Assembly: GCA_963708255.1 (NCBI GenBank)
Contig: CAVPSE010000005.1
Location: forward strand, 182,347 to 246,346
DNA length: 64,000 nucleotides
Reading direction: 5' to 3'
Source: an uncultured Thermoplasmata archaeon
GTDB lineage: Archaea; Thermoplasmatota; Thermoplasmata; Lutacidiplasmatales; UBA184
Shown here: in pieces, positions 2,768 through 53,564 of the stretch
Position numbering within the stretch: the first letter of the stretch is position 1
Layout: each line of letters opens with the position of its first letter
Notes under the pieces: model-generated
Databases searched by the model: none
What the model was told of the DNA's origin: nothing
The model's input: only the letters and a program-made list of their open reading frames with translations
Position numbers and translations under genes: made by a program

Positions 2768-3706
2768 GTGCCTGCGTGCGGCGTGCGTCGGATCCCCCGC
2801 CGGTTCACGGCCGCGGACCGTGTGGTCACCTACCTGACGCCTCCGAGGCTGAGTTCCCTTCCCCAGGAGCGCGGGCAGCTGGAGTACTCCTCCCGGTCCA
2901 TGGTGTTTCGGGACGACGGACGCTCCCTACGACGGGTCTGGGGACCGCCCGACGACCCGTGGGCCGTCGGGGTCGAGGAGGCCGGCGCACGATGGCGGAT
3001 CACCGCCTGGGGGCGGGATGCCCCGGAGGCCCGGGACGCCGTCCGATCGATGTTCGCGCTCGAAGATCCGTTGGAGGAGTTCTACCGGCAGGTCCGGGCC
3101 GAGCCTATCCTCCGGGGGACCGAGCGGCGGTTCCGCGGCCTCCGACTCCCGAGGGACCCCAGCCTGTACGAGGCAATCCTTCACGCCATCCTCGGCCAAC
3201 AGCTGAGCGTGGCCGCCGCCCACACGATCAAGCGGCGTCTCACGGAACGGACCGGGGCCTTTCTGAACGTGGAAGGAGTGGACCTACCGAGGGTTCCGTC
3301 CCCCGCCGAGATCGCCGAGCTGGGATTCGACGGCCTACGGTCGGTCGGGGCCAGCGGCGCGAAGGCCCGCTCTCTGCTGGCGCTTGCTGAACGGTGGGCT
3401 TCGGGCGCCCTCGATCCGAAGGGGCTTTACTCAGGCGATCCGGAGGCCGCGATCGAGCGGCTCGATCAGGAGCCAGGCGTGGGGCGTTGGACCGCGGAGA
3501 ATGCCCTCCTTCGGGGGATCGGCCGCCGCGACCTGTTCGTGGCCGGGGACCTCGGCCTGAGAGTGGCGCTGGACCGGTACGGCGCAGTGCCGCGCGCAGC
3601 CCCGGAGGAGGTGGCCCGATCCTGGGGGGAACGGTGGTACCCCGGATGGGGAAGTTACGCGACGCTCTACCTGTGGCGACGGCTGGTCACCGACCGGCCC
3701 GGCTAG
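2768..3706 (+). CDS. alkA: DNA-3-methyladenine glycosylase II / HhH-GPD base-excision glycosylase (AlkA-like)
   Basis: 312-aa ORF with a helix-hairpin-helix GPD region (LDQEPGVGRWTAENALLRGIGRRDLFVAGDLGL), a catalytic Asp context, and an AlkA-like N-terminal domain. Confidence 0.7.
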   Translation: MPACGVRRIPRRFTAADRVVTYLTPPRLSSLPQERGQLEYSSRSMVFRDDGRSLRRVWGPPDDPWAVGVEEAGARWRITAWGRDAPEARDAVRSMFALEDPLEEFYRQVRAEPILRGTERRFRGLRLPRDPSLYEAILHAILGQQLSVAAAHTIKRRLTERTGAFLNVEGVDLPRVPSPAEIAELGFDGLRSVGASGAKARSLLALAERWASGALDPKGLYSGDPEAAIERLDQEPGVGRWTAENALLRGIGRRDLFVAGDLGLRVALDRYGAVPRAAPEEVARSWGERWYPGWGSYATLYLWRRLVTDRPG

Positions 3707-3945
3707 CGTCGGCCCGCGGTCCGGACCCGCCATATCGCCGAGCAAGACGCGGCGTACGACTTCGTTACGCCGGCCCCGCATGTTTGTCGGTGTTCCGGCC
3801 CACCATCCTTATCCACCTCGGGACGGACAGAGCCTACCAACCGTCGTGACGCGGGTGGGAGTCGCCAGGGCACTTGGGGTGAGACCCCAGGGTCGGCCGG
3901 ATCGGAACCGACCGGCCCCGCCAATCCTCGCCGTCGGGACAGCGA

Positions 3946-6086
3946 GTGCGAACTAGGATGGCAGAGACCGAGGAACAGCCGCGGGGCGGCTCCCAGGTGC
4001 GAACCGCGCGGCTAGGTCTCTTCGTCCTGATCGTAGGGGTCACGCTCGTGACCGTGCTGGGCGCCATGAGCCCATCCCATTCGGCCGGCCCGCAGGCCGC
4101 CGGCCCCGGGCGAATCCCCGGGGTCACGTCGTTTAGCCCCAACCCCCTCTCGGTCGGGGGCCTGACGACCACGATCTCGGACTCGCTCCAGCTTGGGATC
4201 TCGGACAATCCCCACACGATCTGCGCCTTCGGGGCCGATTCGTGCCCCGCCGGGGTCGGGCTCTCGCGCGTCACGCTTTCTGCCGCCGCGGGGAGCTCAG
4301 GAGTGCTCGCCTGGCCGAACGTCGAGATCGCCTTCGTGATCGAGACCACCGCGTACGACGGGGTGTACGATCCGACCGCCAGCGATCCGGGGCTGGACCC
4401 CTGCGCCGGCGCGGCCGCGGGCTCCGGTATCGTCTGCGAGGAATCGAACGGGGTTCCGTTCTTCGTCGCGAACGCGCAGCTCATCGCCAACTCGATCTCC
4501 GCGGCGAACCCTCACAGCCAGGTGTCGTTCGCGATGGTCGACTACTTCGCCAACATCAACAACTGGGACGACGGCGACGGGGCCGAGTACCACGTCGACA
4601 TCCCCCAGTTCATCCCGTCCTCCCAGTTCGGCCAGGCCGTGAAGTCGACGTTCCAGGCGACCGTGCTCAACGGTAACTGGTCTACGGCGACTCGGACCTG
4701 TCTGACAACCAGCTCACCGCGTCGACGATCACCGCGATGTACGGGACGATCATGGGATCGGGCCTGGACTGGACGAACGACACCCACCACGTGATCGTCT
4801 GGATGGGCTCTACGGCCCCGAGGGACCCGAACTATCCGGAGGACTACTGCGTGGCACCCGACGACCAGTTCTACGCGTACGAAGGGTGCACCGGGTCCAC
4901 CTGCGAGCCGTCGTACCAGTTCCCGACGGGGTCGAGCCCGCAGTGCGAGGGTTGGGTCAAGAGCCAGGATGGCAACGCGACCCACTCGATCGCAGCGCTC
5001 GCCAAGACCTCCCCGTCGTGCACCGGGTCGGTCGGGGGGGTCTGCACCGTGGATGCGATCGACTACTACGACACCCCGACCGATTATGAGAGCCAAGGGT
5101 GGCCCAGCGGCGCTCACAACGGCGGACCGGGCGGGTCGGCCGTGGTCCAGGACGCCTCCCACATCATTCTCGCAGGGTGTGACATCGCAGCTGCGACGGG
5201 AGGGACCTGGGACGGCCCCGCCTGGGCCTCCTGCCCCGATGGAGAGGCGGGAACGCTCCAGTACGTCCCCCACGGGTCGTACTCCTCCCCCAGCACGTCG
5301 AACCCCACGCTGTTCAACGCGCTTCGGCAGGTCGGGTTCGGGCCGGTCCTGGAGACCCAGGTGGCGTCGGGCTCCAATCACCCGATCTTCTCCTTCGTGC
5401 CGTTCGGCAACATCGCCCCCGCTCCGGCCAGCGAGCTGCAGGCGACGGCCTCGTGCGTCCGCAACGGGATCGACCTCCGGACCTGCCAGACGGAGCCCAC
5501 CCTGGTGAACTTCGATGGAGTGAGCTACCTGGGGTGGAACTGGTCCACCAACTCGACGTCGAATGTGATGTTCCTCGGCGACTACTGGACGGCGTCGTTC
5601 AACATCATCGCCAATGGCCCGCCGTACGCCTCCGTGCCGATCGACGCCTGCACGACCACGGACTGCAAGGCGGGCGGTAGCGGGGCGATCAACGGTCTGT
5701 ACTCGTGGGCGTCGTACGTGCCGTACACGAACAACACGGTGATCACGGAGTCGTTCCCGCTCGCCCAGGTGACGGTCCAGCTGACACCCGCGGCGACCTC
5801 GCCTCCGAACGTGCCGCCGGCCCCACCGCCCGCGCCGCCTCCGTTCCCGATCCTGGCGCCATCGCCGCTGCCGGTGGTTCAGCAGATCGGGGTGGGCAAC
5901 AGCGTCGGAGTGGCGAACGTCTCGCTGCAGGCGACGGCCGCCGGGTTCTTGGGCGCAGGGTTCACGACGATCAGCATCAAGAACCGGCCCGTGGCGATGA
6001 AGGTCGCCGCGAAATCCGGTACGTTCCGGTCGGCGTTCGACAAGGAAGTCGGCAAGGGCGACACCGGCATCGGCCGGTTCGAGTAG
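3946..6086 (+). pseudogene. Secreted Cys-rich vWA-like surface protein, tandem paralog copy 1, broken by a 1-nt deletion near 4690 (ORFs 3946..4794 and 4737..6086 are the two halves)
   Basis: About 90% nucleotide similarity by eye to 6519..8648 along the whole length. Copy 1 reads aactggtctacggcgac where copy 2 reads aactggtactacggcgac. N-terminal signal anchor; vWA-like beta-alpha pattern (VAFVIETT.YDG, SFAMVDYFAN, HVIVWMGSTAP); Pro-rich linker and a conserved C-terminal domain. Confidence 0.6.
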
Positions 6087-6518
6087 TCGAGAACTGAGAT
6101 CCGACAGGAGCGCCGTCCGGTTGGTGCCGCGCGCCGGGCCCCGAAGGTCCAGCGATACGGCACATCTGGGACGGGCCAGTCCGACGGGGACATAGGGGAG
6201 CCCTCGTCACGGGAGGTCGAGGGTCTGTTCCGACCGGCAAGATATCCGGGCTGACAGCGCCAGCCAGCGATTCCCTCCATCCGGTAGGCCGGTTTCGCCC
6301 ACCGGGTAATGACGTACGACTCGTTTACGGTGAGGTTTTCCTCTCGTTCAGTGTTCCGGCGCCCTACGCTTATCCCCCTTGGAACCCAGGAAGCCCCCAG
6401 GTGTCGTGAGGCTCGTGGTGATCACCGCGGAGCTCGGGAGGGGGACGTCGAGCGCGTCACCTCCGGCGCGATTCGGATCCCATTCCCTCGGTGCACGAGG
6501 GTGGGCAGGGGAACATAG

Positions 6519-8648
6519 ATGGAGATGAGGGAGGACGTTACGCCGACCAGTCCCCGAGTCCGGAAACTCCGATTGGGCGTTCTTGCGCTGATCTCCGTCG
6601 TCGTCCTCATCACCGTGCTCGGATCGTTCGGCCCTGTCCACGGGACCCCCACGAGGGCCGGTGGCTCCGCTACGATCGCCGGCGCCAGCCCATTCGCTTC
6701 GAACGCTCTTTCCGTCAGCGGGCTCACCACGTCGATCTCGGATTCGCTCCAGCTAGGGATATCGGACAACCCCCACACCATCTGCGCTTTCGGTGAGAAC
6801 TCATGCCCGGCCGGCGTCGGCCTCTCCCGTGTTACCTTGTCCGCCGCGGCGGGGAGCGCGGGCGTCCTCAGCTGGCCCAACGTCGAGGTCGCCTTCGTGA
6901 TCGAGACCACCTCGTACGACGGGGTCTACGACCCTACCGCGGCTGACCCGGGGGGGGATATGTGCGCGAACGCGGCGATCGGGACTGCGACGCTCTGCGA
7001 GGAATCCAACGGGGTTCCGTTCTTCGTCGCGAACGCGCAGCTCATCGCCAACTCGATCTCCGCGGCGAACCCCCACAGCCAGGTGTCGTTCGCGATGGTC
7101 GACTACTTTGCCAACATCAACAACTGGGACGACGGCGACGGGGCGGAGTACCACGTCGACATCCCCCAGTTCATTCCCTCCTCCCAGTTCGGCCAGGCGG
7201 TCAAGTCGACGTTCCAGGCAACCGTCCTCAACGGGAACTGGTACTACGGCGACTCGGACATGTCGGACAACCAGATCACCTCCTCGTCGATCACCGCGAT
7301 GTATGGGACCATCGTCGGGTCGGGGCTGGACTGGACGAACGACACCCACCACGTGATCGTCTGGATGGGATCGACCGCGCCCCGCGACCCGAACTACCCC
7401 GAGGACCATTGCGTCTCACCCGAGGACCAGAACTCGGCGTACTTTGGGTGCATGGGCGCGACGTGCGAGCCGTCGTACCAGTTCCCGACAGGGGCGAGCC
7501 CGCAGTGCGAAGGGTGGGTCAGGAGCCAGGACGGCAACCCGACCCACTCGATCGCGGAGCTCGCCAAGACCGCTCCCTCGTGCACGGGATCCGTCGGAGG
7601 CGTCTGCACGGTGGATGCGATCGACTACTACAACACCCCGACCGACTACCAGAGTCAGGGGTGGCCACTGGGCCGCACGAACGGTGGGCCGGGCGGTACC
7701 GCCGTCGTCGAGGACGTGTCCCAGATCATCCTGGCCGGATGTGACATCGCGGGAGCGACCGGTGGCACGTGGGACGGCCCTGCGTGGGCCTCCTGCCCCA
7801 ATGGGCAGGCCGGTACGCTCCAGTACGTTCCCCATGGGTCGTATTCCGCCCCGGGCACCACCAACCCGAGCTTGTTCAACGCGCTCCGCCAGGTCGGGTT
7901 CGGCCCGGTGCTGGAGACCCAGGTGGCATCGGGCTCCGACCGACCGATCTTCTCGTTCGTGCCTTTCGGTAACATCGTGCCGGCACCCGCGAGCGAGCTC
8001 CAGGCGACCGCCTCGTGCGTCCGGAGCGGGATCGACCTCCGGAGCTGCCAGACGGAACCCAGTGTCGTCAACCTCGACGGCGTGACCTACCTCGGGTGGA
8101 ACTGGTCGACCAACTCGACGTCGAACGTGATGTACCTGGGGGACTACTGGACCGCCTCGTTCAATATCATCGCCAACGGCCCGCCGTACTCGACGGTGCC
8201 GGTGGACGCGTGTACGACGACGCCCTGCGAGGCCGGTGGGAGCGGGGCCATCAACGGCCTCTACTCGTCCGCCTCGTTCGTGCCATACACGAACAACACG
8301 GTGCTCACGGAGTCGTTCCCGCTCGCGCAAGTGACCGTGCAGCTGACGCCCACGGCGACATCACCTCCGACCGTGCCGCCGGCTCCACCGCCGGTCCCGC
8401 CCCCATTCCCGATCCTGGCCCCGTCGCCGCTGCCGGTCGTGCAGCAGATCGGCGTGGGCAACAGCGTGGGGGTGGCGAACCTGTCGCTGCAGGCGACGGC
8501 CGCCGGGTTCCTGGGCGCCGGGTTCATGACGATCAGCATCAAGAACCGGCCCGTGGCGATGAAGGTCGCGGCGAAGTCCGGCACGTTCAGGTCGGCGTTC
8601 GACACGGAAGCTGGCGAGGGCGATACCGGCATCGGGCGGTTCGAGTAA
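6519..8648 (+). CDS. Secreted Cys-rich vWA-like surface protein, tandem paralog copy 2 (intact, 709 aa)
   Basis: Uninterrupted ORF. N-terminal hydrophobic anchor, many Cys and N-x-S/T sites, a PPAPPPVPPPFPILAP linker, and C-terminal ...GFLGAGFMTISIKNRPVAMKVAAK...GIGRFE. About 150 bp of upstream sequence is also duplicated. Confidence 0.75.
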   Translation: MEMREDVTPTSPRVRKLRLGVLALISVVVLITVLGSFGPVHGTPTRAGGSATIAGASPFASNALSVSGLTTSISDSLQLGISDNPHTICAFGENSCPAGVGLSRVTLSAAAGSAGVLSWPNVEVAFVIETTSYDGVYDPTAADPGGDMCANAAIGTATLCEESNGVPFFVANAQLIANSISAANPHSQVSFAMVDYFANINNWDDGDGAEYHVDIPQFIPSSQFGQAVKSTFQATVLNGNWYYGDSDMSDNQITSSSITAMYGTIVGSGLDWTNDTHHVIVWMGSTAPRDPNYPEDHCVSPEDQNSAYFGCMGATCEPSYQFPTGASPQCEGWVRSQDGNPTHSIAELAKTAPSCTGSVGGVCTVDAIDYYNTPTDYQSQGWPLGRTNGGPGGTAVVEDVSQIILAGCDIAGATGGTWDGPAWASCPNGQAGTLQYVPHGSYSAPGTTNPSLFNALRQVGFGPVLETQVASGSDRPIFSFVPFGNIVPAPASELQATASCVRSGIDLRSCQTEPSVVNLDGVTYLGWNWSTNSTSNVMYLGDYWTASFNIIANGPPYSTVPVDACTTTPCEAGGSGAINGLYSSASFVPYTNNTVLTESFPLAQVTVQLTPTATSPPTVPPAPPPVPPPFPILAPSPLPVVQQIGVGNSVGVANLSLQATAAGFLGAGFMTISIKNRPVAMKVAAKSGTFRSAFDTEAGEGDTGIGRFE

Positions 8649-8818
8649 GCCGGAGATCCGGGCCGCCTGCACAGGGGGCGCTGTCAGAGAGACCGCTCTC
8701 GCCTCCGCCGGGCCTACAGGGCGATACGCCAGCCCGTCCTAGGGAGGGTGCAGCCGGGGGGAGGAACGCCCCCCTCGATAGGGAGAGCACCCGACCGTCG
8801 ACCCGGGGGACAGGCCCA

Positions 8819-9376
8819 TCAGTCGACCTGTGGGTGAGTCCGGTCCCCATGCTCGCCGCCGCGCAACGGGAGTCGGGCCTCGACGTGGTGAACCGGGCCC
8901 CCACGTCCCAGGACGCTCGATTTCAGGAGGAGCTCGGTCACCCGGGTCGTCCCGAACGGCGTTTCCGAGAAGCGGGTCCGCAGAACATGGGCCAGCGCGG
9001 CGTCCTTCGGTGACCGGACCCTGAGAACGGTAAGGTGGGCCACGAACGGCCGGTCCTCCACAGGGAGCCCGTGCGATCGGGCCACGGCCACCAGCCGGTC
9101 GTGCAGGCGGGCGAGCTCCGCGGTGCCCTCGGCGATGCCGACGAACACGACTCGCGGCCGTTCGTCGGAAGGGAACGCACCCAGCCCGTGGAGGCGCAGC
9201 TCGAAGGGGGGCTCGGACTCCACCGCGCGCGCGAACGAAGCTCCCAGCGGGGCCGCGGCAGCGGCCTCGATATCACCGAGGAAGAGCAGGGTAAGGTGGC
9301 TCGGGGCTCCCTCCCCAGGCGTCCGGATGCCGGGGAGCTCCGGGGTCGGCAGCTCGACGGCGACGAACGCTCGCAC
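8819..9376 (-). CDS. thpR: RNA 2',3'-cyclic phosphodiesterase (2H phosphoesterase, ThpR/LigT family)
   Basis: Two H-x-T-x motifs (HLTLLFLG and HLTVLRV) in a roughly 185-aa protein. Overlaps the stop of the upstream ATPase gene by about 20 nt. Confidence 0.8.
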   Translation of the reverse strand: MRAFVAVELPTPELPGIRTPGEGAPSHLTLLFLGDIEAAAAAPLGASFARAVESEPPFELRLHGLGAFPSDERPRVVFVGIAEGTAELARLHDRLVAVARSHGLPVEDRPFVAHLTVLRVRSPKDAALAHVLRTRFSETPFGTTRVTELLLKSSVLGRGGPVHHVEARLPLRGGEHGDRTHPQVD

Positions 9377-9394: not shown

Positions 9395-11982
9395 TCACCG
9401 ATGAAGTCGGCCGTCCGGTCCCCGCCGGGCCGCCTTCGGGAGGGTCCAGACACCGGCCCGGCCGGGATAGGCGCCGGCAGCCTCCAGCACCGCTCGGACC
9501 CGGCGGGCCCGGGCCCCGTCGGCGACCAGGAAGAGCACGAACGCCCCCACCCGCTCCCCTTTCGACAGCCCGCGCCGGATCCGCTCGGGCCGAAGGGCTC
9601 CGGACACCTCGGCCTCCACATGCACGTCCCGGCCACGAAAGTAGCGCCACCCCCACTCCCCCCGGTGGCGCTCCAGCGCGTCGTAGAGTTCGCCGGGGGA
9701 GCGCGTCTCCTCGGGAAGCTCGGCGATGCGGACCCGCGCGTCGGGGAGCCGCGTGTCGAACCTCCCCTGCCGGATCGGCTCCAACCGGAGCCCGTGACGC
9801 GCGAAGATCCGCGCGGCCTCCACCACGAGCGCACGATGCTCCGAGCTTTCGGTCGCCGCCCCGGTCGGCGCTCCGATCCCCAGGATCCGCGCGCCGGCTG
9901 GCGTGATCCCGAGACGGCCGTCGTGGGCCTCGAGCCATCCCCGCCGGAGAAGCCGTCCGGTCCGAGCCACGGTCCGGTCCGCGGAGTCCACCGCCGCCGC
10001 CGCGCTCTCGACCCACGGGAGGGGATGGCCACGTTCCTGGGCTCCCCAGACCTCGAAGAGCACCTGGTCATCCTCGCCCGGGAGCCACGGTTCCTCCGGA
10101 TCGACCGGACCCACCGTGGCGCGGGTCGACGCAGTGAGGGATTCCCATGCCCCTCGGGGGGACGAGGGCAACGGTCGGGTGGAGACGAGCCGGGCGGGCA
10201 CTCCGGGGGTGGCGGCGAGGGCGTGACCGACCGGAAGAACCGGGAGCCACCGGCGGGCCTCGGCGTCCGAAAGCCCGATCCATGCGCCAGTGGTTCGCGC
10301 CGCCGCGGCGGGGACCCGGAACAGGACGTGCGAACCGGCTGCCCCGGCGGCCGCGGCGCGCAGTTCGGTCGACCATCGCTCCGGGTACTGGGTCGCCAGG
10401 AGGAGCGACACGCCGAACTTGCGACCTTCGCCCAGGATCTCTGAGACGAGCCGGGGGGAGAACGCATGGGCCTCGTCGAGGACGAAGAGGCATTCCGGGG
10501 CCCCGGCACCCCCGGCCGGCGGACCGCCGCGAGGTACGCCCGGGTCGCGAGCAGCGTCGCCGCGAAGGTGCTCGCTTCCGGACCCAGGGTCCGGAACGGG
10601 ATCCGGACCAGCAGGGAGCCCCCGGTCGAAAGCCAGGGACCGAGCTCCACGCCGCCGCTGGGCGGGGCGAGAAGATCGCGCAGCCGCTCCGACAACAGGA
10701 CCTTGGTGACGCGGGAGGCCGCCGGCCACAGGAACTCCGGGCTCCGCCGTTCGATCGCCGGCAGCTCCTCGAGGAACCGGGCGAGCTCCGGTCGACGTGT
10801 GGTGAGGCGTGCCGCCTCCCGCCGCCGCGGGTCCGTCAGGAGCTCGGCGAGGTCCGAGAGATCTCCCCCTCCTCGAGGGTGAGCCGGACGAACGTGTCGA
10901 ACAGCCGTTCCAGCCGGAACCCCCAGTACACCTCCGAGCCCTCCACCGAGAGCCGTTTGAGCGCCGCCACGAGCTCCTGGGCCTCGCTCTCGCCATCGGC
11001 GTCGGGAGCCAGGATCCTCACGCCGGTCCGGGTGCCGGCCGCTCCCTCGACGTCGACGGCTGCGACCTTCCCGTGAGGCATCCCCGCGAGGAGTGCCGAT
11101 GTCGCCGGGGCCAGGTCGCCGTGGATGTCGAAGAGGACCACGCTCCGTCCCGTTCGAAGCCGCTCGGCCGCGACGGACGCGAGCATCGAGGTCTTCCCGC
11201 TGCCGCTCGCGCCCACGACGACCGTGTGCAATCGGAGGTCGGCGTCACGGGGGAACGGAGGCGCCGGGGGTCCCGGGACGGCGGAGGCGGCCCGGGCCGG
11301 AGGCACCATCACGGGTCCGCGTGCGCAAAGACCGGGCAGTGTCCCTCTCTCCCAGGCCCGCCGGGCTCGCCATCCGTCGGCCACTCGCCGGGGGCGGATC
11401 GGAACCGCCGCGGACCGGCCGAGCAGCTCCGCCACCGGCACGGCGGCCGCGAGGAGCCGGCCCCCGAGTTCGTGGGCCGGTGACGGCGACCCGGACGCGG
11501 GCCCACACTCGCAGACCCTCCGGCCCCCCGGGGAACCAGTGCCACTGGGCCGACGACCCCGTCTGTTCATCGAACCGTTCGCCGACCGGGCGAAACGGGG
11601 GGGTGCTCGCGGTCCCGGCGGGATCGGTCGTTCGCCGGCCCTCGTCGACGGGGAGGGGGTTCGCTCTCGCGGGGGTGGGGAGGCCTTCGAGCACGGCGTA
11701 CGCGACGATCTCGCCGCCCCTCCGAACTACCCGGGGAAGGGCGACGGACCGGCGCAGGGTTCCCGGGAGCCCTTCGGCCGCGGAGACGATCAACATCGCC
11801 CCCTCCGGCGTGGCCGGGACGAGGAAGGGCGAGGGGGTCCCCGCGTGTCGCTCGATGAGGAGGCCGAGTCCGGTGGGCGCGAACGCCATCCGGCTGGCCA
11901 CCCGATCCAGGAACTCGGCCGCCCAGGCGCTCCCGGCGGTCCGGAACTCGTAGACGGGGAGGCCCGATCCCGCGGCCCCCAT
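9395..11982 (-). CDS. HerA/FtsK-like P-loop ATPase (DUF87/AAA_10 type) with an extra C-terminal domain of about 200 aa; broken by at least two frame changes, near 10860 and 10490, the latter in a G/C run
   Basis: Walker A VVVGASGSGKTSMLAS (in ORF 10836..11570). Walker B and Arg-finger region CLFVLDEAHAF...LGEGRKFGVSLLLATQYP (in ORF 9395..10996). An intermediate segment is in the frame of ORF 8938..10695. N-terminal barrel-like domain in ORF 11245..12117 (MGAAGSGLPVYEF...). The start ATG overlaps the TGA of the upstream small gene. Confidence 0.6.
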
Positions 11983-12317
11983 CACCGGCACCGTCCTCTC
12001 AGCTCGAGGATCTCCGCCTCGAGCTGACGGAGCCGGCTCCGCCGGGCGTACTCCAGCAGGGTCGAGGTACCGAGGGTCCTCCGTACGGGGTGATCGCCCT
12101 CCCAGAGACGGAGGCACCAGAGCTCCCGCCCGTCAGGGAGCCGGTACAGGGTCGCCCACGGTTGGTACGCACCCGCGATCGGGACGCGGAGGCGTCCTAC
12201 CCGGACGACGCGGTACGGCGCGCCGGAGCGCGGCGCCGTTCCCGAACGGCTGGCGTGGTCGGCGATGGCGAACGGAACGGGTTCCCAGGTCGGTGTAACG
12301 GGGCGCGTACGCGCCAT
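11982..12317 (-). CDS. Small hypothetical protein (111 aa), translationally coupled to the HerA-like ATPase
   Basis: ORF with protein-like composition (YRLPDGRELWCLRLWEGDHPVRRTLGTSTLLEYARR). Its stop TGA overlaps the ATG of the downstream gene by one nucleotide. Confidence 0.4.
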   Translation of the reverse strand: MARTRPVTPTWEPVPFAIADHASRSGTAPRSGAPYRVVRVGRLRVPIAGAYQPWATLYRLPDGRELWCLRLWEGDHPVRRTLGTSTLLEYARRSRLRQLEAEILELRGRCR

Positions 12318-12983
12318 AGAGAACTCCCGGGACCCCCGGCCGCGGCACCAGCGACCTGGGGTCCCCTCGCGGGTCGGGGGCGTCGGGCACGAGCCCGATC
12401 ACCCAGGTCGTCGGGACCCCGGGGATGCCCGGCGGGAGCACCGCCGCCCGGGGTCGGTCAGCCCGTCCGAAGGACGGGGAAGGTCTCCTCCAAGCCTGCC
12501 GGGGCCGCGGGAGCGCTCTAGTTGAAAGCGCTCAGGCTCGCGGTGCCGTCGGGAGGGTCCCCGCCCTCACCGTGCCGGCGTCGGGGGTCGGTTCGGTCCT
12601 CGGAGCGCCGGGGGGCCGATGGATCGGCGGGTCCGGTCTCCGGGGGCCGTGGCGTTCGGGGCGACGCGCGGTGTCGGGTTCCTTCGACCGGTCGAGATCG
12701 ACGGGGTCGAAGCAACGGGGAACCAGCGTGGGCCCGTTCTGATACGCCGAGCCGATCGGCCCGGGGGGATGGAGGCCGAGGCCCTCACTGAACGATGAAA
12801 GGTGGGGTCTCGAGCACGAAGGGGGAAGGGATGGAAGACCCCGCCGCACGCCAGGGACGCGGTGCCGTCCCTCTAGGCGATGTGAGCGGGGTCTTCCGGG
12901 GTGGTTGCAGACCAACAGTGGGTATCCGGGGTATTTGAACGCCGGATCGGGGGGTGGTGAAACACCCCCTCGTGAGGGCGTTG

Positions 12984-13460
12984 CTAATGCGCCCGGCGGA
13001 CCGAATCGTCCACCACGATGCGGGGGAGCTCGCCCTGGATCGCGGGGGTGCGCGAGCCGGGTCGCTCGGAGTCGGCTGCCCGAAGCCGCGGTGTAAGGTA
13101 CCTCTCACCCCAGAGACGTAGCTCCCGGGCCGCCGGCCCGAGGCCCGTTCCCATCTCGGTCAGGGAGTAGACGACCACGAAGGGACGCGTGCTGACCACG
13201 TTCCGTTGGACGACGCCGGAGCCCTCCAGGAACTTGAGGGTCGCGCTGAGCGTCTTCGCGTTCAGGCGCGGGTTGGACTTCAACAGTTCACTGAACCGCT
13301 GAGGGCCTTCAAGGAGCCGGTGGATGATGGCCAGACGCCACTCGGTACCGATCACGCCGACCGCGGCAATGACGGGGCACAGGGCCCGTCCCTTCGCCTC
13401 GCACGGTTCGTCCTTGGAGTGCAGAGTGAGGGCGGTTCGCCTCGACGGAGAGGGCTGCAT
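12984..13460 (-). CDS. HxlR-family (MarR-like) transcriptional regulator
   Basis: CPVIAAVGVIGTEWRLAIIHRLLEGPQRFSELLKSNPRLNAKTLSATLKFLEGSGVV...PFVVVYSLTEMG is the HxlR/DUF24 winged-helix signature. Confidence 0.8.
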   Translation of the reverse strand: MQPSPSRRTALTLHSKDEPCEAKGRALCPVIAAVGVIGTEWRLAIIHRLLEGPQRFSELLKSNPRLNAKTLSATLKFLEGSGVVQRNVVSTRPFVVVYSLTEMGTGLGPAARELRLWGERYLTPRLRAADSERPGSRTPAIQGELPRIVVDDSVRRAH

Positions 13461-13553
13461 GGGTCGCCTTATTGCTCACATGGAGGCGCGTATATTAAGG
13501 CTTACGGTGGGTAACCGAGTTACCAAGGGTAAGTAGGTGCCACCTGACCGTCG

Positions 13554-14225
13554 GTGGGGCCTCCATCGTTCCCGTGGCCGGCAAATGGTTTTGGCTCCGT
13601 TCGGCTGCGTATCGACAGCATGCATCGAACCGGGACCGACCTCACGGTCGAGCGAGAGGTCGAGGACGACCTCGGGGTGCGCCGACGCTACCGGATCTCG
13701 GCCCGGTTCGAGCCGGGCGCGGGCGAACCCGCCCCCGGGCCGGAGGAGACCGCCCGCCTTCTCGCGGGGCTCTCCGGCGAGCTCGATGCGGCGCTCTCGG
13801 CGGGACCGATCCCCGGAGCCGCCGTGCGGCCGGACCGCTCCGTGGCGGAGCTCGTCGAGGTGTACCATCCTCGACAGGTGGAGCTGGTGGAGCTGCTCCT
13901 CGCCGAGGGAGAGCTCACCCGGGGCGAGTCCGCGCGTCTTCGAGAGTATCTCTCGACCGGCGGGGCGCCGACGCCGCCGGTCCCCGAGATCGGGGGCGTC
14001 CCGCCCACCGAGCGGCCCCTCGCCGCCGCCCCCCTCTCTCAGGACCGGACGTCGAGCTCGGTGCGCCCGGTCGATGAGCTGGTGCGGTTGTACCGGATCG
14101 AGTCCCTGAAGCAGGCGGGCGCGGTCCGCGGCCGTCGTCAGATATCCTACGAGGAGTACATGGCCCTCAAGCGCCACTTCGGCTCGGCCGAGACGGTCGC
14201 GTCCAACGAGCCTCCGCGGTCCTAG
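13554..14225 (+). CDS. Hypothetical protein
   Basis: The plus-strand ORF has ordinary protein composition, while the overlapping minus ORF 13476..14231 is R/G junk. An internal Met at about 13620 may be the true start. An AT-rich patch (tatattaagg) lies in the divergent intergenic region. Confidence 0.4.
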   Translation: MGPPSFPWPANGFGSVRLRIDSMHRTGTDLTVEREVEDDLGVRRRYRISARFEPGAGEPAPGPEETARLLAGLSGELDAALSAGPIPGAAVRPDRSVAELVEVYHPRQVELVELLLAEGELTRGESARLREYLSTGGAPTPPVPEIGGVPPTERPLAAAPLSQDRTSSSVRPVDELVRLYRIESLKQAGAVRGRRQISYEEYMALKRHFGSAETVASNEPPRS

Positions 14226-14374
14226 CGCCATCGCCGCCGCTGCGCGCGAGGCCGAGATCTCCGGCCCCCGCCTCTCTCACGACGAGATGGCGGCGGGCGG
14301 GCATCTGCCTCCGGGGAGCGCCGTCGCTGCGCGAAACCTCCAAGACGACCCGGCCGATCGGGGGAGAGACGAGC

Positions 14375-17945: not shown

Positions 17946-17999
17946 GATGAGGCGAGGGGGGCGGGGCTAATACTCCGTCGCCGGGGCGTCAGCCGAGGC

Positions 18000-19158
18000 T
18001 CAGCCGCTCCGCGGCGGCCGCGGGGCGGGGGCCGAGGAACGGCCCGGACCGAACAGGGTCGGGTCGAGGTCGCTCTTCTCGCCCAGCACCGCCCGGGCGA
18101 CGCGGCGGGTCGACGCCGGCGCGAGCATGAACCCGTGGCCCGCGAACCCGTTGGCGTGCACGAAACCGGGGAGCCGAGGGTCCTCGCCGATCACCGGGAG
18201 GCCGTCGGGGGTGTCGTCGTAGAACCCGGACCATGCCCGAAGGACCCCGATCCGGCCCAGGCGCGGGACGAGGCCCGTCAAGGCCCGGGCCATGGAGGTG
18301 AGGAACTCCGGGGAGCTCGGCATCCCGAGGCGGGTGCCCGGGGGCGGGTGGAGCGTGAGCCCCCCGACGATCTCGCCCCGCAGGGTCTGGCTGAAGTACA
18401 GGCCGTCGGAGGGTCCGGACCACCATCGGGTCCAGGAACGGTTTCATCGGCTCGGTGGCCAGGATCTCGTGCCGGCTCGCGACGTTGGGGGCCTCGAGCC
18501 CGGCCATCCGGCTGACGTCGCCGGACCACCCGCCGGCCGCGTTGACGACGATGTCGGCCCGGAGGGGACCTTGAGACGTGTCGACGCCGGCCACTCGGCC
18601 TCCTTCCGTCCGAAGTCCTTTCACCTCCGTACCGAGGAGGACCTCGACGCCCTGCCGACGGACCGCCTCGTAAAGGCCCCAGATCGCAGGGAACGGGTAG
18701 AGCGTCCCATCGGTGCGAAGGAACGTGCCCCCGACGATGCGGTCGATCGAAAGGCACGGCGCGCGCTGGCGGACCTGCTCGGGGTCGAGGACACGGGCCG
18801 GCAGTCCCTCGGCCGCGACGACCCGCTGGACCCCTCGGAGCCGGTCGAGCTCGGCCTCGGTTTCCGCGAGGAAGAGGTAGCCCCCCTGCCGGAACCAGAT
18901 GTTGTAGCCGAACTCCGTCCCGAACCGCCGGTAGTCCTTGACCGACTCCCGGGCGAGACGGACCGTCGCGGCGGTCTCCCACTGCTGCCGGACCCCGCCC
19001 CCGTTCCGCCCCGAGGCCCCGGCGGAGAGGAAGCCCCGGTCCAGCACCACGATCGGCCCGGCGCCGGCCGAGGCCAGGTGATGGGCGGTGTAGAGGCCGA
19101 TGATGCCTCCACCGACGATGGCGATCCGGTAGTCGGAGCGGGAGGGACCGTCGGTCAC
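18000..19158 (-). CDS. FAD-dependent oxidoreductase, SoxB / L-proline dehydrogenase beta-like (DAO family); frameshift near 18425
   Basis: GTG start inside a GTGA overlap with the upstream gene. YRIAIVGGGIIGLYTAHHLA (FAD Rossmann). C-terminal GFYDDTPDGLPVIGEDPRLPGFVHANGFAGHGFMLAPA in ORF 18000..18323. Confidence 0.65.
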
Positions 19159-20800
19159 GGCGTCTCCGGCGGAATCCCGGCGAGCGCCGAGAGCGGGGTC
19201 GGGGTGACCGGGGGCCGCTGGGTGATGTACCCCACCTCCGACGGCGGCCGCCCCTCGAGCTGGCTCAGGAGCAGGATGACGTCGGGGAGGCAGTAGCGAC
19301 CCTGGCAAAGGCCGGTCCCTGCGGCCGTGTACCGCTTGATCACTTCGATCCCCCGGTACCCGCGGTGGGACGCTTCCTCGATCTCCTCCAGGAGCACATC
19401 CTCGCACGGACAGAGCACGAGCTTGCCGCGACCCCGGGGCCGGCCGAGCCACTCCCGATAGTAGCCCTCCAGCTCCCCGGGAACGTCGTCCGCGACGCGG
19501 GGGGGCGCTCCGACGGCGCGACCGAGTCCCCGAGGAGCTCCCGGGCGGCCGCCGCCCCGCTGGAAGGGGACCCGGCCGCGTCGACGAATCCGGCGGAGGT
19601 GCCGGCGGCCCACAATCCGGGAACGGTGGTGGCGCATCCCTGGAGCTCCGGATAGTACGCCCCGCCCGTCGAACGCCAGGCCATGCGGGCCCCTGCCTGG
19701 AAGAACAGCTGTGGGTTCGGGAGTCGCCGGTGCGCCAGGACGATCGCGTCCGCCGGGACGATCGTTGGGACACCCCCCCCGCGGGCCGCGAGGCGGACCG
19801 ACCGGACCCGCCCGCCGCCATGGGCGCCGAGGAGCAAGGTGCGGGGGTAGACGGGCACCCCGAGCCGGGCCGCCCGCTCCGCGACGAGGCCGTGGACCGC
19901 GCCCGGGGCGACCACCGCCTCGACGCGCTCCCCCCACGTGTCGAGAAGCGTTGCGACCCGGGGGCTTCCCCCGACGAGAACGGCGTGGCGGAACGGCGGA
20001 GCGCCCTCGGGGGCGGAGATCGCGAGCGCGCCGTCCGCCGTGAGAACGCCGGGGCGATCGTTGCCAGGGAACATCAGCGGGCCATCGTACCCGCCCGTGA
20101 CCACGAGAACGCGCTTCGCGGAGATGGAGATCCCGACCGTACCGTCCCGCACCGCCAGGGCGCGGAACGGCCGGTCCGGGTCGGGGCGGCCGGGGAGGAA
20201 CGACAGCTCCGTTCCCCCGAGCCACGGGACCCCGGCGACCTTTGGGAGTCCGGGGAATCGTTCGACGACCGTAGGCACGATCCCTCGATCGAGCAGGATG
20301 CGTGCGGCGTCAGAGCCGCTCCGCCCGCCCCCGACGATCAGGACGTCCGTCTCGATCCGCTCCCCGGGCGTAGGGGGAGGGGCCGGCGTGTCCGGGACAC
20401 GACCGTAACCGGCCAGGCGCCGGACGACGCGCTGGTAGAGGGGGGTGAACGCCCGGGGACGCCGGAACCCGTGGGACGTGTCGAGACCGCGGGGGAAGAG
20501 GTGGTCGAGCAGGCCCATCATGTCCCACCGGGGGGATGGCCACGCGTTCTCGGTCCGGATCGCGTCCCCCGGGGAGGGGACGTACCGGCACCCGCGGACA
20601 TTAGGGACGCCGTTCACCCGCACGAGGCAGCCGGTACACTGTCCCGTCCCGCAGAACGGGGCCCGCGGCCGGTGGTATCGGATGGACCGCTGGAGGACCG
20701 GGATCTCCCGGTGCGAGAGGGCCTGGACGAGCGTTTCCCCGGGCGCGGACGCCAGCGGGCGCCCGTCAAAGCGGGCCTCCCGCGGCCTTTCGCTCGCCAT
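19155..20800 (-). CDS. SoxA/HcnAB-like alpha subunit: N-terminal 2Fe-2S domain fused to an FAD/NAD pyridine-nucleotide oxidoreductase with a BFD-like [2Fe-2S] domain; frameshifted between about 19450 and 19700
   Basis: CGTGQCTGCLVRVNG (2Fe-2S). DVLIVGGGRSGSDAARILLDRG (dinucleotide fold). BFD-like LCPCEDV...EVIKRYTAAGTGLCQGRYC in ORF 19155..20225. Confidence 0.6.
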
Positions 20801-20913
20801 GCAGAACGACCGGACGGCACCGGGCGGGCGGCTATTTAGGTCGGTCGGGCCGGCCGTCGGTGGAACCGGTTCCGGAGGGTAGAAGCGACGTGGCGAGGCG
20901 TCGTGCAGGGTAC

Positions 20914-20920
20914 CTATATA
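20914..20920 (+). promoter_or_regulatory. TATA-like box (ctatata) about 30 nt upstream of the AbrB-PhoU paralog 1 start; likely a leaderless or short-leader transcript
   Basis: An AT-rich hexamer in otherwise roughly 70% GC DNA, at the archaeal promoter distance from the ATG at 20950. Confidence 0.4.
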
Positions 20921-20949
20921 GTGTAGGGAGAGGTCCCCAACCCATCCCC

Positions 20950-30775: not shown

Positions 30776-30810
30776 GAAGACCCCCGGTGGCGCTCGCACC
30801 GAATTTCCGC

Positions 30811-30818
30811 TATAAAGA
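30811..30818 (-). promoter_or_regulatory. Archaeal TATA box (TTTATA on the minus strand) about 35 nt upstream of the giant Gly-rich gene start
   Basis: ccgctataaagatatacg is the only AT-rich patch in this GC-rich stretch. Its spacing to the GTG at 30775 fits a TATA-to-TSS-to-start arrangement with a short leader. Confidence 0.4.
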
Positions 30819-30972
30819 TATACGACATTCCGCGACGGTTCGACGACGCTGATATCGGGCACCGACGTGACCGGGCGTCGCATTCCGCGGGTCCCGTTGC
30901 GCTCAGGACCCCGGGTCGAGAACCGCCTAGCTGTCGGCCACCGGCGGGGTCGATTTCTGGGGTCGGGACGAT

Positions 30973-49793: not shown

Positions 49794-51932
49794 TCAGTGG
49801 ATCACCCAGGTTAGCACGATGTCGAGGGCCTTGATGGCCACGAACGGGAGGACCGCTCCGCCCACCCCATAGATCGCCATGTTGCGGAGGAACGTCCGCT
49901 CCGGGAGTTCCGGGCGGAACCTCACGCCGCGGAATGCGAGTGGGATGAGGGCCGGTATGACGGCAGCGTTGAAGATCATCGTGGCCAGGATCGCGGTCAC
50001 GGGGCTGTGCAGTTGCAGGATGTTGAGCTTCTGCGCGGCCACACTGGCGGGCAGCATCGCGGGGAAGAGCGCGAAGTACTTCGAGACGTCGTTCGTGACG
50101 CTGAACGTTGTGATGGCCCCCCGCGTCATCAACAGCTCCTTGCCCGTCTCGACCACCTTGGTCACTTTGGACGGGTCCGAATCCAGATCGATCATGTTCG
50201 CTGCCTCCCGGGCCGCAGCGGTGCCCGAGTTCATCGCGATCCCGACGTCCGCGATGGCCAGCGCGGGGGCATCGTTCGTCCCGTCCCCCTCGACCCCCAC
50301 GACGTGGGCCTGGGCCTGTTCCTGCTTGACCCGGGTGAGCTTGTCGGCCGGCTTCGCCTGGGCGATCACCTCCGCGATACCTGCCTCGTCGGCGATGACC
50401 CGGGCCGTGATCTCCGTATCGCCCGTGACCATCACGGTGCGGATCCCTGTCGCCTGGACCGCCGCCAAGCGCCCCCGGATCCCGGGCTTCAACTGGTCCC
50501 GGAGGTCGATCAGCCCGACGACCTTGGACCCGACGGCAACGGCCAGCGGAGTGCCACCTTGTCGGGAAATCTCCTGCGACTTCCAGAGCAGCTCGCCCCG
50601 ATTGACCTCGGGGGCGATGGCCAGCACCGCATCGACGGACCCCTTGACGATGCGATCCGGGGCTCCGGATCCTTCGAGTTCGACGAGCTTCTTCCAAACC
50701 GGCCCCCGAGCCACGTCGGCCGAGACCATGGGAAGTTCCGGACGGCGCGCGGGATTCGAACCGAAGTTGGCCAGAAGCTCCACGCCGCTGAGACGGGTCT
50801 CCGCGCTGAAGTCAATGGTCGTTCCGGCCAGGACCCGGGGGGTAAGGGGAAGGGCCAAGCCCCGAGCCGTGGCCACCTCCGCGACGGATCGTCCCTCGGG
50901 GGTCCGGTCCAGCGCCGACGCCAAGAACGCGGCCTGGCCGACGTCCGCCTCAGTAAACCCTTCGAGGGGGATGAACTGCTTGACACTGCGCTGTCCCTGG
51001 GTGATCGTGCCCGTCTTGTCGAGGATGAGCGTGTCGACGTCCCCCGCGGCCTCCACAGCCTTGCCGGACTTGGCGATCACGTTGGCCCGCCCCACGCGCG
51101 TGATGCCCGCGATGCCGATGGCAGGCAGCAGCCCTCCCACGGTCGTCGGCATCAGCGCTACGAGGAAGGAGAGAAGGATGGCGAGGTCCACCACGAAACC
51201 GAGAGAGTCGGCGAGAACGAGGAAGCTTCCCACGACCAGGATGAAGATTCCAGTGAGGCCCACGAGGAGAAGATTGAGGCTGACCTCGTTCGGGGAGCGC
51301 GGTCGGTGGGCTCCCTCGACCAGCTTGATCATGTCGTCGAGGTAGCTGCGACCGGACTCCGCGACGATCCGCATGACCAGCGCATCGGAGGCCAGAGCGG
51401 TCCCTCCGATCAGGGGATCTCCCACTTTCTTCACGACGGGGGCGGACTCGCCCGTCATGAGCGATTCGTCCAAGTACGCGGTGCCTTCGAGGACTACTCC
51501 GTCCCGGGGAACGATTTCCGGGGGCCGGAGCCGCACCACGTCTCCCGGAACGAGGCTCTTGGACGGGACGACGATCACAGTCCCATCCACGACCTTCCTC
51601 GCCAGGACGTCCTGCTCGAGCCGGCGGAGGGAGTCTACACGGGCTTGGCCCTGGATCTCGGAGATCGACTCGGCCAGGGTCGCAAACCAAACGGTCAGAA
51701 CGAGGATCAGGGTCAGGGCCACGTAGATCCACTGCGGCTCGGTGGTCAGACCCGCGAAGGCTTCCGGATCGAGGGACATCGCGCCGGTGATCACGGCAGT
51801 GGCCTCGACGATGAGCATGATGAGGTTCGTCCTCAGGAGGTATCGAGGGTCGAGCTTGCGAACGGACTGGACTACGGCCCGTTCGATCTCCCCCCGACCA
51901 AACCCACTTTCCCTCGTCTTGTGGTCCGACAT
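49794..51932 (-). CDS. kdpB: Potassium-transporting P-type ATPase subunit B
   Basis: 712-aa uninterrupted ORF with LDKTGTITQG phosphorylation motif, MVTGDTEITARVIADEAG, GDGTNDAPALA and KdpB-type TM topology. Confidence 0.85.
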   Translation of the reverse strand: MSDHKTRESGFGRGEIERAVVQSVRKLDPRYLLRTNLIMLIVEATAVITGAMSLDPEAFAGLTTEPQWIYVALTLILVLTVWFATLAESISEIQGQARVDSLRRLEQDVLARKVVDGTVIVVPSKSLVPGDVVRLRPPEIVPRDGVVLEGTAYLDESLMTGESAPVVKKVGDPLIGGTALASDALVMRIVAESGRSYLDDMIKLVEGAHRPRSPNEVSLNLLLVGLTGIFILVVGSFLVLADSLGFVVDLAILLSFLVALMPTTVGGLLPAIGIAGITRVGRANVIAKSGKAVEAAGDVDTLILDKTGTITQGQRSVKQFIPLEGFTEADVGQAAFLASALDRTPEGRSVAEVATARGLALPLTPRVLAGTTIDFSAETRLSGVELLANFGSNPARRPELPMVSADVARGPVWKKLVELEGSGAPDRIVKGSVDAVLAIAPEVNRGELLWKSQEISRQGGTPLAVAVGSKVVGLIDLRDQLKPGIRGRLAAVQATGIRTVMVTGDTEITARVIADEAGIAEVIAQAKPADKLTRVKQEQAQAHVVGVEGDGTNDAPALAIADVGIAMNSGTAAAREAANMIDLDSDPSKVTKVVETGKELLMTRGAITTFSVTNDVSKYFALFPAMLPASVAAQKLNILQLHSPVTAILATMIFNAAVIPALIPLAFRGVRFRPELPERTFLRNMAIYGVGGAVLPFVAIKALDIVLTWVIH

Positions 51933-51942
51933 TGTAGTACCT

Positions 51943-53564
51943 CTACCCGAAGATCCCGAGGATCAGGAACGGCAAGAACGCCAGGGCCGTCAGCACGAAT
52001 GTCACTCCGATCAGGGTGAGGGTGAAGGGCCAGCCGTCGGTCCTGATCGGCTCGGGCGTGTCCCGGCGGTCCTTGGTGGCAAAGGACCCGGCGATGCCCA
52101 TCATGAAGACGATGGGAGCGAACCGCCCGACGAGCATGACGATCCCCGTCGACACGTTCCAGAAGGGGGTGTTCGCGACGGTCCCCAGGTAGTCGGATCC
52201 GTTGTTCGCCGATGCCGAGGTGTACTCGTAGAACACTTGGGTGAAACCTCCCGCCCCCGAATGGGGACCGAGGATACCGGCGACGTTCCCGCTACTGTAG
52301 GCGATCGCGGCGGGTACCAGGATCATCAGGGGGTGGATGACGAAGGTCAGGACGGCGAGCTTCACGTCCCACCCTGAGATCTTCATCCCCAGGAACTCGG
52401 GCGTCTTGCCGACCATCAGGCCGACCATGAACAGGGTGAGGAACGCGTAGATGACGAGCGTCATGAACCCGACGCCGGACCCCCTGGGATCGCCTGGACG
52501 AACATGAACGTGAACAGGCTGGCCCCAGTCCTCGGGGAAAGCCCCGAGAGGTACGCATTGGTAGACCCGGTATCGCTGGAGATCGAGAAGAACTGGAACA
52601 GGACGCTGCCGAAACCCCCGAACCGCGTTTCGAGCCCGACGGGTCCGCTCACCGTTGTGAGGGAATACGCCAGGAGGGCCACGAACGGCGCGAGGACGGC
52701 CACCATGAAGGCCCGGCCGCGGCCCCTTCCCACCAGCTCCCCGTACGCGAAAATGAACGCTAGGGGGATGATGAGCATCAGGATGAGATAGACCAGGTCC
52801 GAGATGCCGTTCGGATTGGCGAAGGGGCTCCCCAAGTTCGCCCCATAGTACCCTCCGCCGTTCTGCCCCAGCTCCATGATGGAGTCGAACCCCGCCAGTG
52901 GCCCGACGACGAAGGTCTGGTGACCCCCGCCGATCAGCCCGGTGGTCAGAGTTCCGTTCAGGGTCTGGGGGACCCCGACCGCCATGAGAAGGAGGGCGCT
53001 AACGAAGGAGATCGGTAGCAGGATGGTGACCAACGACCGGAAGAAATCTGCGTAGAAGTTCCCGATCCCCTTTCCCTTCTGGATGAAGGGGCGCAGGAAG
53101 GCGAGTCCGACTGCGATGGCCGAGGCCGGAGCCACGTACTGGTTGAGCATGAGCACCAGCTGGGAGGCGACAGTAAGGGCTTGATCACCGGAGTAGTGCT
53201 GGAGATTCGTGTTCGTGATGAACGAGGCGCTGGTGTTGAAGTTCAGGTCCCACGAGAACGGAAGCAGCCCCCGGGGATTGCCCGGCAGCCACCCCTGGAG
53301 GCCCAGGACGACGTAAGTGAAGATGGCGAAAGCCGCATCGAGGAGCACGAGGGCGATGACATACTCCTTCCAATCCATCGATCTCTTGGGGTCGATGCCC
53401 GCCGCCCGGAACACGAGATTCTCGGCCTTCGAGAGGAAGCCCTCGAATGGACGAGGGGTCCCTCGGATCAGGTGGACCAAGTACCTTCCGAGGTAGTATC
53501 CGAGCAACAGGGTGAGGCCGAGCGCCAGCGCCAGTAGCTCGGCATCCGCTACCCCCTCGATCAT
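51943..53564 (-). CDS. kdpA: Potassium-transporting ATPase subunit A (K+ channel-like subunit); frame change near 52460
   Basis: ORF 52461..53564 (MIEGVADAELLALALGLTLLLGYYLGRYL...NTNLQHYSGDQALT...) continues in ORF 51943..52464 (...MTLVIYAFLTLFMVGLMVGKTPEFLGMKI...). The kdpABC gene order is conserved. Confidence 0.75.

Follow-up and report, generated by a model that had tools for sequence, protein, structure and literature searches.

A tandem pair of vWA-fold surface-protein genes in an uncultured Thermoplasmata archaeon: an old duplication and a probably technical frameshift

A stretch of 64,000 nucleotides from an uncultured Thermoplasmata archaeon (assembly GCA_963708255.1, contig CAVPSE010000005.1), referred to below in its whole length as the window, was analyzed with respect to two neighboring genes for a surface protein. 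The list of open reading frames (ORFs), BLASTN and tblastn all revealed two collinear paralogs on the same strand, copy 1 (3946/3958..6086) and copy 2 (6519..8648). This agreed with a preliminary description, made from the sequence alone, of a surface-protein gene, membrane-anchored and Cys-containing, that had been duplicated in tandem. The same description had regarded the duplication as recent and copy 1 as inactivated by the loss of a single base. Taken together, our results show the genes to be old tandem paralogs at a satellite locus of their family and make it probable that the frameshift in copy 1 is technical. The encoded protein, so far unannotated, represents a variation on the theme of surface adhesins/receptors with a vWA head, here in uncultured Thermoplasmata from soil.

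The copies had been called highly similar, which overstated their likeness. Nucleotide identity determined by BLASTN was 85.4% over approximately 1.9 kb (4172-6085 versus 6733-8647), with 22 gap openings, and the identity between the copies was 83.5% in protein and 82% in codon-aligned DNA. In the N-terminal ~70 codons, comprising the cytoplasmic stub, the hydrophobic helix and the linker, only 39% identity was observed. Copy 2 (plus strand) is an intact 709-aa gene, as documented by its ORF and by an exact match, P0001, in a public collection. A tblastn search for a third paralog of the family within the window found none.

The global alignment of the two copies contained a sole unpaired base in the coding body, located at 4681..4682 on the plus strand. 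At this site copy 1 reads AACTGGT-CTACGG, with GGT directly adjoining CTAC, compared to AACTGGTACTACGG in copy 2 (GGTACTAC at the site itself), and the affected codons belong to the conserved loop N-W-Y-Y-G-D-S-D. The gap splits copy 1 into ORFs 3946..4794 and 4737..6086, as the preliminary description had stated. After the base was restored, the frame of copy 1 was open throughout, yielding 709 aa from the ATG at 3958, which is the start position used by orthologs, or 713 aa from the GTG at 3946. The repaired gene showed zero stops and zero further indels, the one-base gap thus being the sole lesion.

The 5′ part of copy 1 (3958..4681, plus strand) was delimited by tblastn with copy 2 and with the family proteins P0002 and P0004 of related genomes. 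It consists of codons 1-241 plus one base and encodes the signal/anchor, the N-terminal β-strands and the first half of the vWA-like domain. As assembled, its frame continues to a stop at 4794, and the 278-aa product is held in public protein collections as P0122. The 3′ part (4682..6086, plus strand), lying in the -1 frame and comprising 468 codons plus the stop, encodes the second half of the vWA-like domain, the β-sandwich, the Pro-rich stalk and the C-terminal anchor/tail. It was 87% identical to copy 2 and 91% identical to P0002, with no internal stops.

The age of the duplication was evaluated by comparison with the corresponding locus in the nearest sequenced relatives. Upstream of the pair lies an HhH-GPD DNA glycosylase gene (2768..3706, plus strand), which shares 87.5% identity with the PF00730 gene located ahead of the lone family gene of genome L086 (GCA_037025305.1), and the same order was found in the JGI contig L087. 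Downstream lies a gene for a LigT-type 2′-5′ RNA ligase / cyclic phosphodiesterase (8819..9376, minus strand), 70% identical to the PF02834 LigT gene of L086. The gene order common to the window and L086 extends over HhH-GPD, the family gene, LigT, a HerA-like ATPase, a 111-aa gene, HxlR, a 200-aa gene, GNAT and MFS. In both relatives a single family gene is located between HhH-GPD and LigT, encoding P0004 in L086 and P0005 in L087.

Synonymous (dS) and nonsynonymous (dN) divergence were determined by the Nei-Gojobori method. Between the two copies, dS was 0.655 and dN 0.103 overall, with dS ranging from 0.60 to 0.66. For seven flanking orthologs, dS between the window and L086 was 0.62-0.95, while P0004 differed from copy 1 and copy 2 by dS values of 0.675 and 0.73, respectively. 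Since the divergence between the copies matches that of the flanking genes from L086, the duplication dates back roughly to the time when this lineage diverged from the closest relatives sequenced, and the claim of a recent event had to be abandoned. Consistently, the neighbor-joining tree, (L087,(c2,(L086,(L001,c1)))), did not place copies 1 and 2 (c1 and c2) as clear sisters. Copy 1 was nearer in protein sequence to P0002 of a third genome (L001) than to copy 2, with 87% identity overall and 91% downstream of the frameshift.

One block of the alignment, codons ~160-245, ending at the frameshift, showed 95-97% identity between the copies. Gene conversion as its cause was largely rejected, as dS was low in the same codons also between copy 1 and P0002 and between copy 2 and P0002 (0.31-0.48, versus 0.18-0.28 between the copies). 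The low dS of this block would mostly reflect local constraint, with at most a minor signal of conversion.

A separate observation was made in the relatives. P0002, encoded in the conserved gene cluster described below (L001 10001-12130), and P0004, encoded at the HhH-GPD/LigT satellite locus (L086 10001-12124), differed by a dS of only 0.33, half the distance that separates each of them from the copies in the window. In that lineage, sequence may have been copied or converted recently between the cluster and satellite loci.

The preliminary description had also noted about 150 bp of upstream sequence common to both copies. Of this, an element of ~35 nt was confirmed, and the remaining leader outside it aligned poorly between the copies. 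The element is located at 3790..3824 in copy 1 (GTGTTCCGGCCCACCATCCTTATCCACCTCGGGAC; plus strand), ~135-170 nt before the ATG and with a CTTAT core, and at 6351..6385 in copy 2 (GTGTTCCGGCGCCCTACGCTTATCCCCCTTGGAAC; plus strand), where it aligns with that of copy 1; the consensus of both is GTGTTCCGGCnCnCnAnnCTTATCCnCCTnGGnAC. It was also present upstream of the single-copy orthologs in L086 and L087, its invariant columns including CTTAT ~150 nt before the ATG. The element is probably the gene's promoter or a regulatory site, putatively of archaeal type. Scans of the region for bacterial promoters and terminators were uninformative, the host being an archaeon. In the proposed course of events, the duplicated unit would have taken along the promoter-like element of the gene; since the old duplication, both copies have evolved under purifying selection.

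Selection was then compared on both sides of the lesion. The dN/dS ratio between the copies was 0.113 upstream (codons 70-245) and 0.118 downstream (codons 245 to the end). In addition, frame breaks were found to be frequent throughout the window. With intact L086 proteins as queries, 8 breaks were detected in the first 16.6 kb; a 926-aa gene and the GNAT gene had two each, copy 1 had one and the HerA-like ATPase gene three. The HerA-like ATPase gene (9398..11985, minus strand) served as a control for assembly quality. A tblastn search with the intact 864-aa L086 protein returned four collinear high-scoring segment pairs in frames -2, -3, -2 and -1; the Walker A region matched DUF87/HerA, and no internal stops were present.

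Pfam profiles crossing from one frame to another gave the same picture elsewhere in the window: DAO (positions 1-247, then 248-352), ABC_tran (2-52, then 52-136), Voltage_CLC (1-125, then 117-344), ABC-3 (1-77, then 80-252) and KdpA (3-371, then 367-542). A P-type ATPase was spread over at least three ORFs. In total, at least 15 corroborated frame breaks besides that in copy 1 were found in conserved genes of the window, and a reference-free scan of frame and composition, based on GC content at third codon positions, yielded 21 candidate frame switches. The sites include ~436, ~2350, ~10498, ~10867, ~11470, ~14705, ~14830, ~18408, ~26830, ~38046, ~40080, 42140-42840 and ~52540. The breaks were single-base, of mixed sign, and occurred about once per 3-4 kb; some lay at C/G homopolymers. 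Whichever frame segment was compared, the broken genes were still 60-85% identical to intact orthologs, and not one in-frame stop was encountered in 4429 codons. All those that could be checked, including transporters and enzymes, were intact in the sister genome. Genuine gene decay would bring nonsense mutations in addition to indels.

Because selection was undiminished downstream of the gap, because so many other breaks were present and because stops were entirely absent, the one-base gap in copy 1 is very probably an indel error of the consensus, in which case both copies would be functional in the organism. Thus the inactivation of one copy, as claimed in the preliminary description, is most probably wrong, and its fallback of an assembly error in copy 1 proved the better reading. 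Two reports on long-read assemblies (PMC12007338, PMC11017572) document indel errors that fragment genes, and the pattern in the window, scattered single-base breaks with no nonsense mutations, is the same. The correspondence is incomplete and some circumstances tell against a technical origin. The evidence on the missing base is indirect, and no independent assembly of the same species was present in the searched collections. Moreover, the gap in copy 1, unlike some of the other breaks, does not lie in a homopolymer. Homopolymers are the commonest site of long-read errors. Two further searches returned nothing: an exact-pattern scan of metagenome contigs for the frameshift site, with or without the extra base, and a search of a collection of 5.8 billion proteins for any protein more than 87% identical to copy 1.

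The alternative that deserves most attention is that copy 1 is a genuine, very recent pseudogene, in which a real one-base deletion struck a redundant paralog too short a time ago for further decay. The lesion is, after all, present in the deposited sequence, its truncated 278-aa product is found in public protein sets, the site is not a homopolymer, and redundancy makes the loss of a tandem copy plausible. A second tandem copy with a single-base frame break ~14 codons away was also found in L019, a long-read metagenome-assembled genome (MAG), but there the break lies at a different site and has the opposite sign. Since constraint was not relaxed downstream and no second lesion was detected, and since at least 15 other nonsense-free breaks in housekeeping genes make a locus-specific event a poor explanation, we consider this alternative unlikely. 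Extending it to gene decay across the whole genome, so that copy 1 and the other broken genes would all be real pseudogenes, would account for the very high density of breaks. Such decay is very improbable in view of the restriction to indels, the lack of stops, the identity retained in every segment and the conservation of the affected transporters and enzymes, which are intact in the sister genome.

Two other explanations were given little credence. Expression of copy 1 by programmed -1 ribosomal frameshifting would fit the fact that both frames are open and under selection; however, no X XXY YYZ slippery heptamer occurs within 60 nt of the gap, and the at least 368 relatives examined, the closest orthologs among them, all encode NWYYGDSD in a single frame, so that its probability is close to nil. 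That the tandem arrangement itself arose in assembly, as a mis-joined or falsely expanded repeat, is suggested by the single copy at this locus in the sister genomes L086 and L087. Yet a nucleotide difference of ~15% and the divergent N-terminal 70 codons are not those of one sequence read twice, and tandem pairs, with 68-95% identity, occur at no fewer than ten other loci in SPAdes, MEGAHIT and long-read assemblies. An artefact of this kind is hardly credible, and the possibility raised earlier, of one collapsed repeat, was excluded on the same grounds.

The L019 locus itself (12258-14250; MAG MFD03399.bin.2.1) contains a one-base insertion in its second tandem copy, CACTCCTCG-C-TCGATCACG, 14 codons further downstream than the site corresponding to the gap in the window. 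A frameshift hotspot common to copy 1 and L019 was rejected, as the sites differ and the signs are opposite; the insertion is probably an assembly error too.

With a technical frameshift in copy 1 as the favored explanation, what had looked like a recent duplication with one copy knocked out becomes an old paralog pair with a probable consensus error, and may serve as a caution. Given so many frame breaks, calls of pseudogenes or split genes in this window are suspect until polishing.

The protein encoded by the pair belongs to a family of its own. At least 368 homologs of ~700 aa with 50-84% identity were found; those with a source name all came from Thermoplasmata or Lutacidiplasmatales MAGs, and all were annotated as hypothetical, none carrying a Pfam domain. 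An exhaustive profile hidden Markov model search of 1.84 billion cluster representatives returned only 226 at E ≤ 1e-3 (210 at E ≤ 1e-10), from which the family was judged narrow and sharply bounded; it recovered the family itself and no tail of vWA proteins. For the protein, no Pfam family was found at E ≤ 1, NCBIfam gave no match, and a sequence profile search of the PDB returned no match for the family and no vWA protein.

In copy 2, an N-terminal signal/anchor helix (residues 13-35) is followed by β-strands (70-111), a vWA-like α/β domain (~120-430), a β-sandwich (~430-620), a Pro-rich linker (~612-640), a weakly hydrophobic Gly/Ala segment (~655-675) and a conserved tail (676-709) ending in GIGRFE. 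The abundance of cysteines noted at the outset was borne out: each copy has 16 Cys, their positions coincide, and 14 of these residues are invariant or nearly so across the family. The Pro-rich linker was likewise present, as PPAPPP(V/A)PPPFPILAP. Many N-glycosylation sites had been reported, but only 5-6 N-x-S/T sequons were counted.

The ectodomain is acidic (56 D+E versus 22 K+R). Together with the many conserved cysteines and the extracellular repeats to which the head is fused in distant members, this points to a type I membrane protein, with a signal peptide, an extracellular head in which the vWA-type domain would pack with a disulfide-rich β-sandwich, a stalk, a C-terminal anchor and a conserved cytoplasmic tail of ~35 aa. 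Speaking against this topology, the C-terminal hydrophobic segment is borderline for a transmembrane helix (mean hydropathy ~1.37) and was left unstructured by AlphaFold. No PGF motif of the PGF-CTERM / archaeosortase sorting signal was found in the protein, nor any match in NCBIfam.

An AlphaFold2 model of the copy-2 protein was built with an alignment of 48 sequences and reached a predicted local distance difference test score (pLDDT) of ~85-95 over residues 70-620. The model contains a hydrophobic helix (13-35), β-strands (70-111), alternating β/α elements (122-420) and a β-rich part (~430-610), the Pro-rich and C-terminal regions being unstructured. In a Foldseek search against the PDB, 78 matches were obtained at E ≤ 1e-3. 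The top 50 consisted entirely of integrin β chains and of adhesins with a vWA domain, and for 48 of these the probability was 1.0; the best were SpaC, PitA, RrgA and GBS104 (E down to 5e-11), along with dozens of integrin β subunits (E 1e-7 to 1e-5). The C-terminal domain modeled alone (pLDDT 74) gave a generic β-sandwich with no significant structural match in the PDB, the best being cohesin (E 0.055) and the PitA sandwich (E 0.086).

A vWA-type fold of the head is thus supported by the model at the fold level, as the preliminary description had anticipated. This assignment is weakened by low template modeling scores in Foldseek (0.2-0.46), which were attributed to multi-domain superposition, and by the failure of the family, lacking DxSxS, to match the Pfam VWA models.

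The non-canonical metal ion-dependent adhesion site (MIDAS), for which ETTSY in place of DxSxS had been noted, was confirmed across the alignment. The motif VIETT(S/A)YDG directly follows the first strand of the α/β domain, so that the MIDAS position reads E129-T130-T131-S132-Y133, followed by D134 and G135. E129 was kept in 48/48 sequences, T130 in 46/48, T131 in 44/48 and Y133 in 38/48, and D-x-S-x-S was absent anywhere in the protein. After β4, G-S-T-A-P is found in place of T-D-G. Conserved acidic or hydroxyl residues occur in all three MIDAS-equivalent loops, namely E129/T130/T131/D134, D245/D247/D250 and S285/T286/D290, and the second of these sets sits in the loop interrupted by the frameshift. 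Conserved E/T/D residues might therefore form a cation site of non-canonical type. Long Cys-containing insertions were observed at residues 130-164 and 285-344.

The genomic context of the family was examined at 79 loci from species-representative genomes, in about half of which a conserved five-gene cluster surrounds the family gene. Gene 1 encodes a giant anchored glycoprotein of 1800-1950 aa with CarboxypepD_reg-like repeats and 49 sequons, gene 2 is the vWA-fold family gene, and genes 3 and 4 encode anchored glycoproteins of 682 and 637 aa with no Pfam domains. Gene 5 encodes a 1205-aa polytopic membrane protein with two CDC48-type AAA domains, which showed 65-79% identity across genomes. 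The cluster was observed at L001 4152-19924 and at about 40 other loci (e.g., L007, L011, L016, L023), in Thermoplasmata, and may represent an undescribed envelope or adhesion system.

Loci outside the cluster are designated satellites. None of the cluster partner genes was found within the window, and the window pair is a satellite tandem pair that grouped with cluster-derived copies in the neighbor-joining tree. Two to five loci per genome were counted, and inclusion of tandem and partial copies raised the number of copies to as many as six; these numbers are lower bounds, as 80 loci were kept of 150 matches. Tandem pairs were present at ten or more loci, and the six intact pairs shared 64-95% identity, the two members of the 64% pair lying ~6 kb apart. 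The suggestion of antigenic or adhesin gene turnover was thus upheld in part: paralogs were recurrently duplicated, with 2-6 copies per genome and repeated tandem pairs, but divergence was concentrated in the N-terminal anchor/linker and a few loops and not in a hypervariable head.

The family also showed modularity. Distant members carry the head joined to repeats of the PKD or CarboxypepD_reg type, and the C-terminal module (profile positions ~472-707) was found on Kelch β-propeller heads as well (P0243-P0271, e.g., P0257, P0243, P0256). In these Kelch proteins, the module closes with a linker rich in Pro, followed by a clear hydrophobic helix, basic residues and the SAF(D/E)...IGR(F/L) tail also seen in the family. 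This suggests a stalk/anchor/tail cassette common to several surface proteins of these archaea.

As a tentative and rather speculative proposal, the family could provide the subunit that binds ligands in an envelope or adhesion system, so far undescribed, of wall-less Thermoplasmata from soil. It would constitute a type I receptor resembling integrin β, with E/T/D residues forming an unusual metal site and a tail ending in GxGRFE. The copy in the five-gene cluster would be the ancestral one. The membrane double-AAA (CDC48-like) ATPase might act on the cytoplasmic tails, and satellite and tandem copies would diversify binding specificity. To our knowledge, nothing is known of the cell envelope in these uncultured archaea. 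No literature linking Thermoplasmata to vWA surface proteins was found, and the Lutacidiplasmatales paper does not discuss surface proteins. The lasting value of the locus lies in a sharply delimited, well-conserved but unannotated vWA-fold surface-protein family (50-65% identity) of Lutacidiplasmatales-like soil archaea, which, with its cluster and the membrane AAA+ ATPase, offers an entry point to their envelope.

Elsewhere in the window, a gene for a large Gly-rich repeat protein (GGxGGxGG) with an N-terminal hydrophobic segment extends over at least three reading frames (27892-31441, minus strand). It contains tandem arrays of period 9/18/27/36 at 28238-29749 and accounts for the 77% GC content and the GC skew of -0.18 at 28-30 kb. 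Further features were a sarcosine-oxidase-like cluster with DAO, SO_alpha_A3 and 2Fe-2S (17989-21007, minus strand), a zinc-uptake cluster of ZnuA, ABC ATPase and ABC-3 permease (35807-38704, plus strand) and a P-type ATPase (40688-43357, minus strand). The kdp operon (49794-53651, minus strand) has a split KdpA and a KdpB-like gene at 49794..51962, and one tRNA is located at 54503-54587 (minus strand).

When compared to known systems, the protein resembled the generic vWA superfamily (Pfam VWA clan) in the β-α alternation of residues 122-420, in its Foldseek matches and in the residue sets of the three MIDAS loops. It differed in giving no Pfam VWA match at E ≤ 1, in lacking DxSxS and in its long Cys-containing insertions. 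vWA heads bind ligands in pilus tip adhesins and in integrin β subunits. By analogy, the role of the protein would be the binding of ligands or partner proteins at the cell surface.

In structure, the protein was matched best by the Gram-positive pilus tip adhesins SpaC (6m48), PitA (7w6b), RrgA (2ww8) and GBS104 (3txa), with Foldseek E values of 5e-11 to 9e-6. It shares with them an α/β domain of vWA type outside the cell, one or more β-sandwiches and the presumed binding role at the cell surface, and the isolated C-terminal β-sandwich weakly recalls that of PitA (E 0.086). In contrast, the archaeal protein shows no detectable sequence similarity to them and no DxSxS, its host is an archaeon, and its own hydrophobic segments would anchor it, with no sortase-built pilus polymer. 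An LPxTG sorting signal was likewise not found in the protein. The genes next to the family are HhH-GPD and LigT or, in relatives, those for giant surface proteins and the AAA ATPase. A conserved C-terminal tail is present here, while tip pilins have none.

The likeness to integrin β subunits, matched with probability 1.0, extends to the general layout: a signal peptide, a vWA-like head with β-strands on both sides (70-111 and from ~468) and many conserved disulfides, then a stalk, one membrane segment near the C-terminus and a conserved cytoplasmic tail of short length. On the other hand, neither PSI/EGF domains (Pfam) nor NPxY are present, the residues of MIDAS, the adjacent MIDAS (ADMIDAS) and the synergistic metal-binding site (SyMBS) are not conserved as such, and an α-subunit partner is not known. 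The likeness may therefore reflect the shared fold of the vWA superfamily, not a specific homology. The family nevertheless opens the question of how deep integrin-β-like architectures of head, stalk, transmembrane segment and tail go in archaea.

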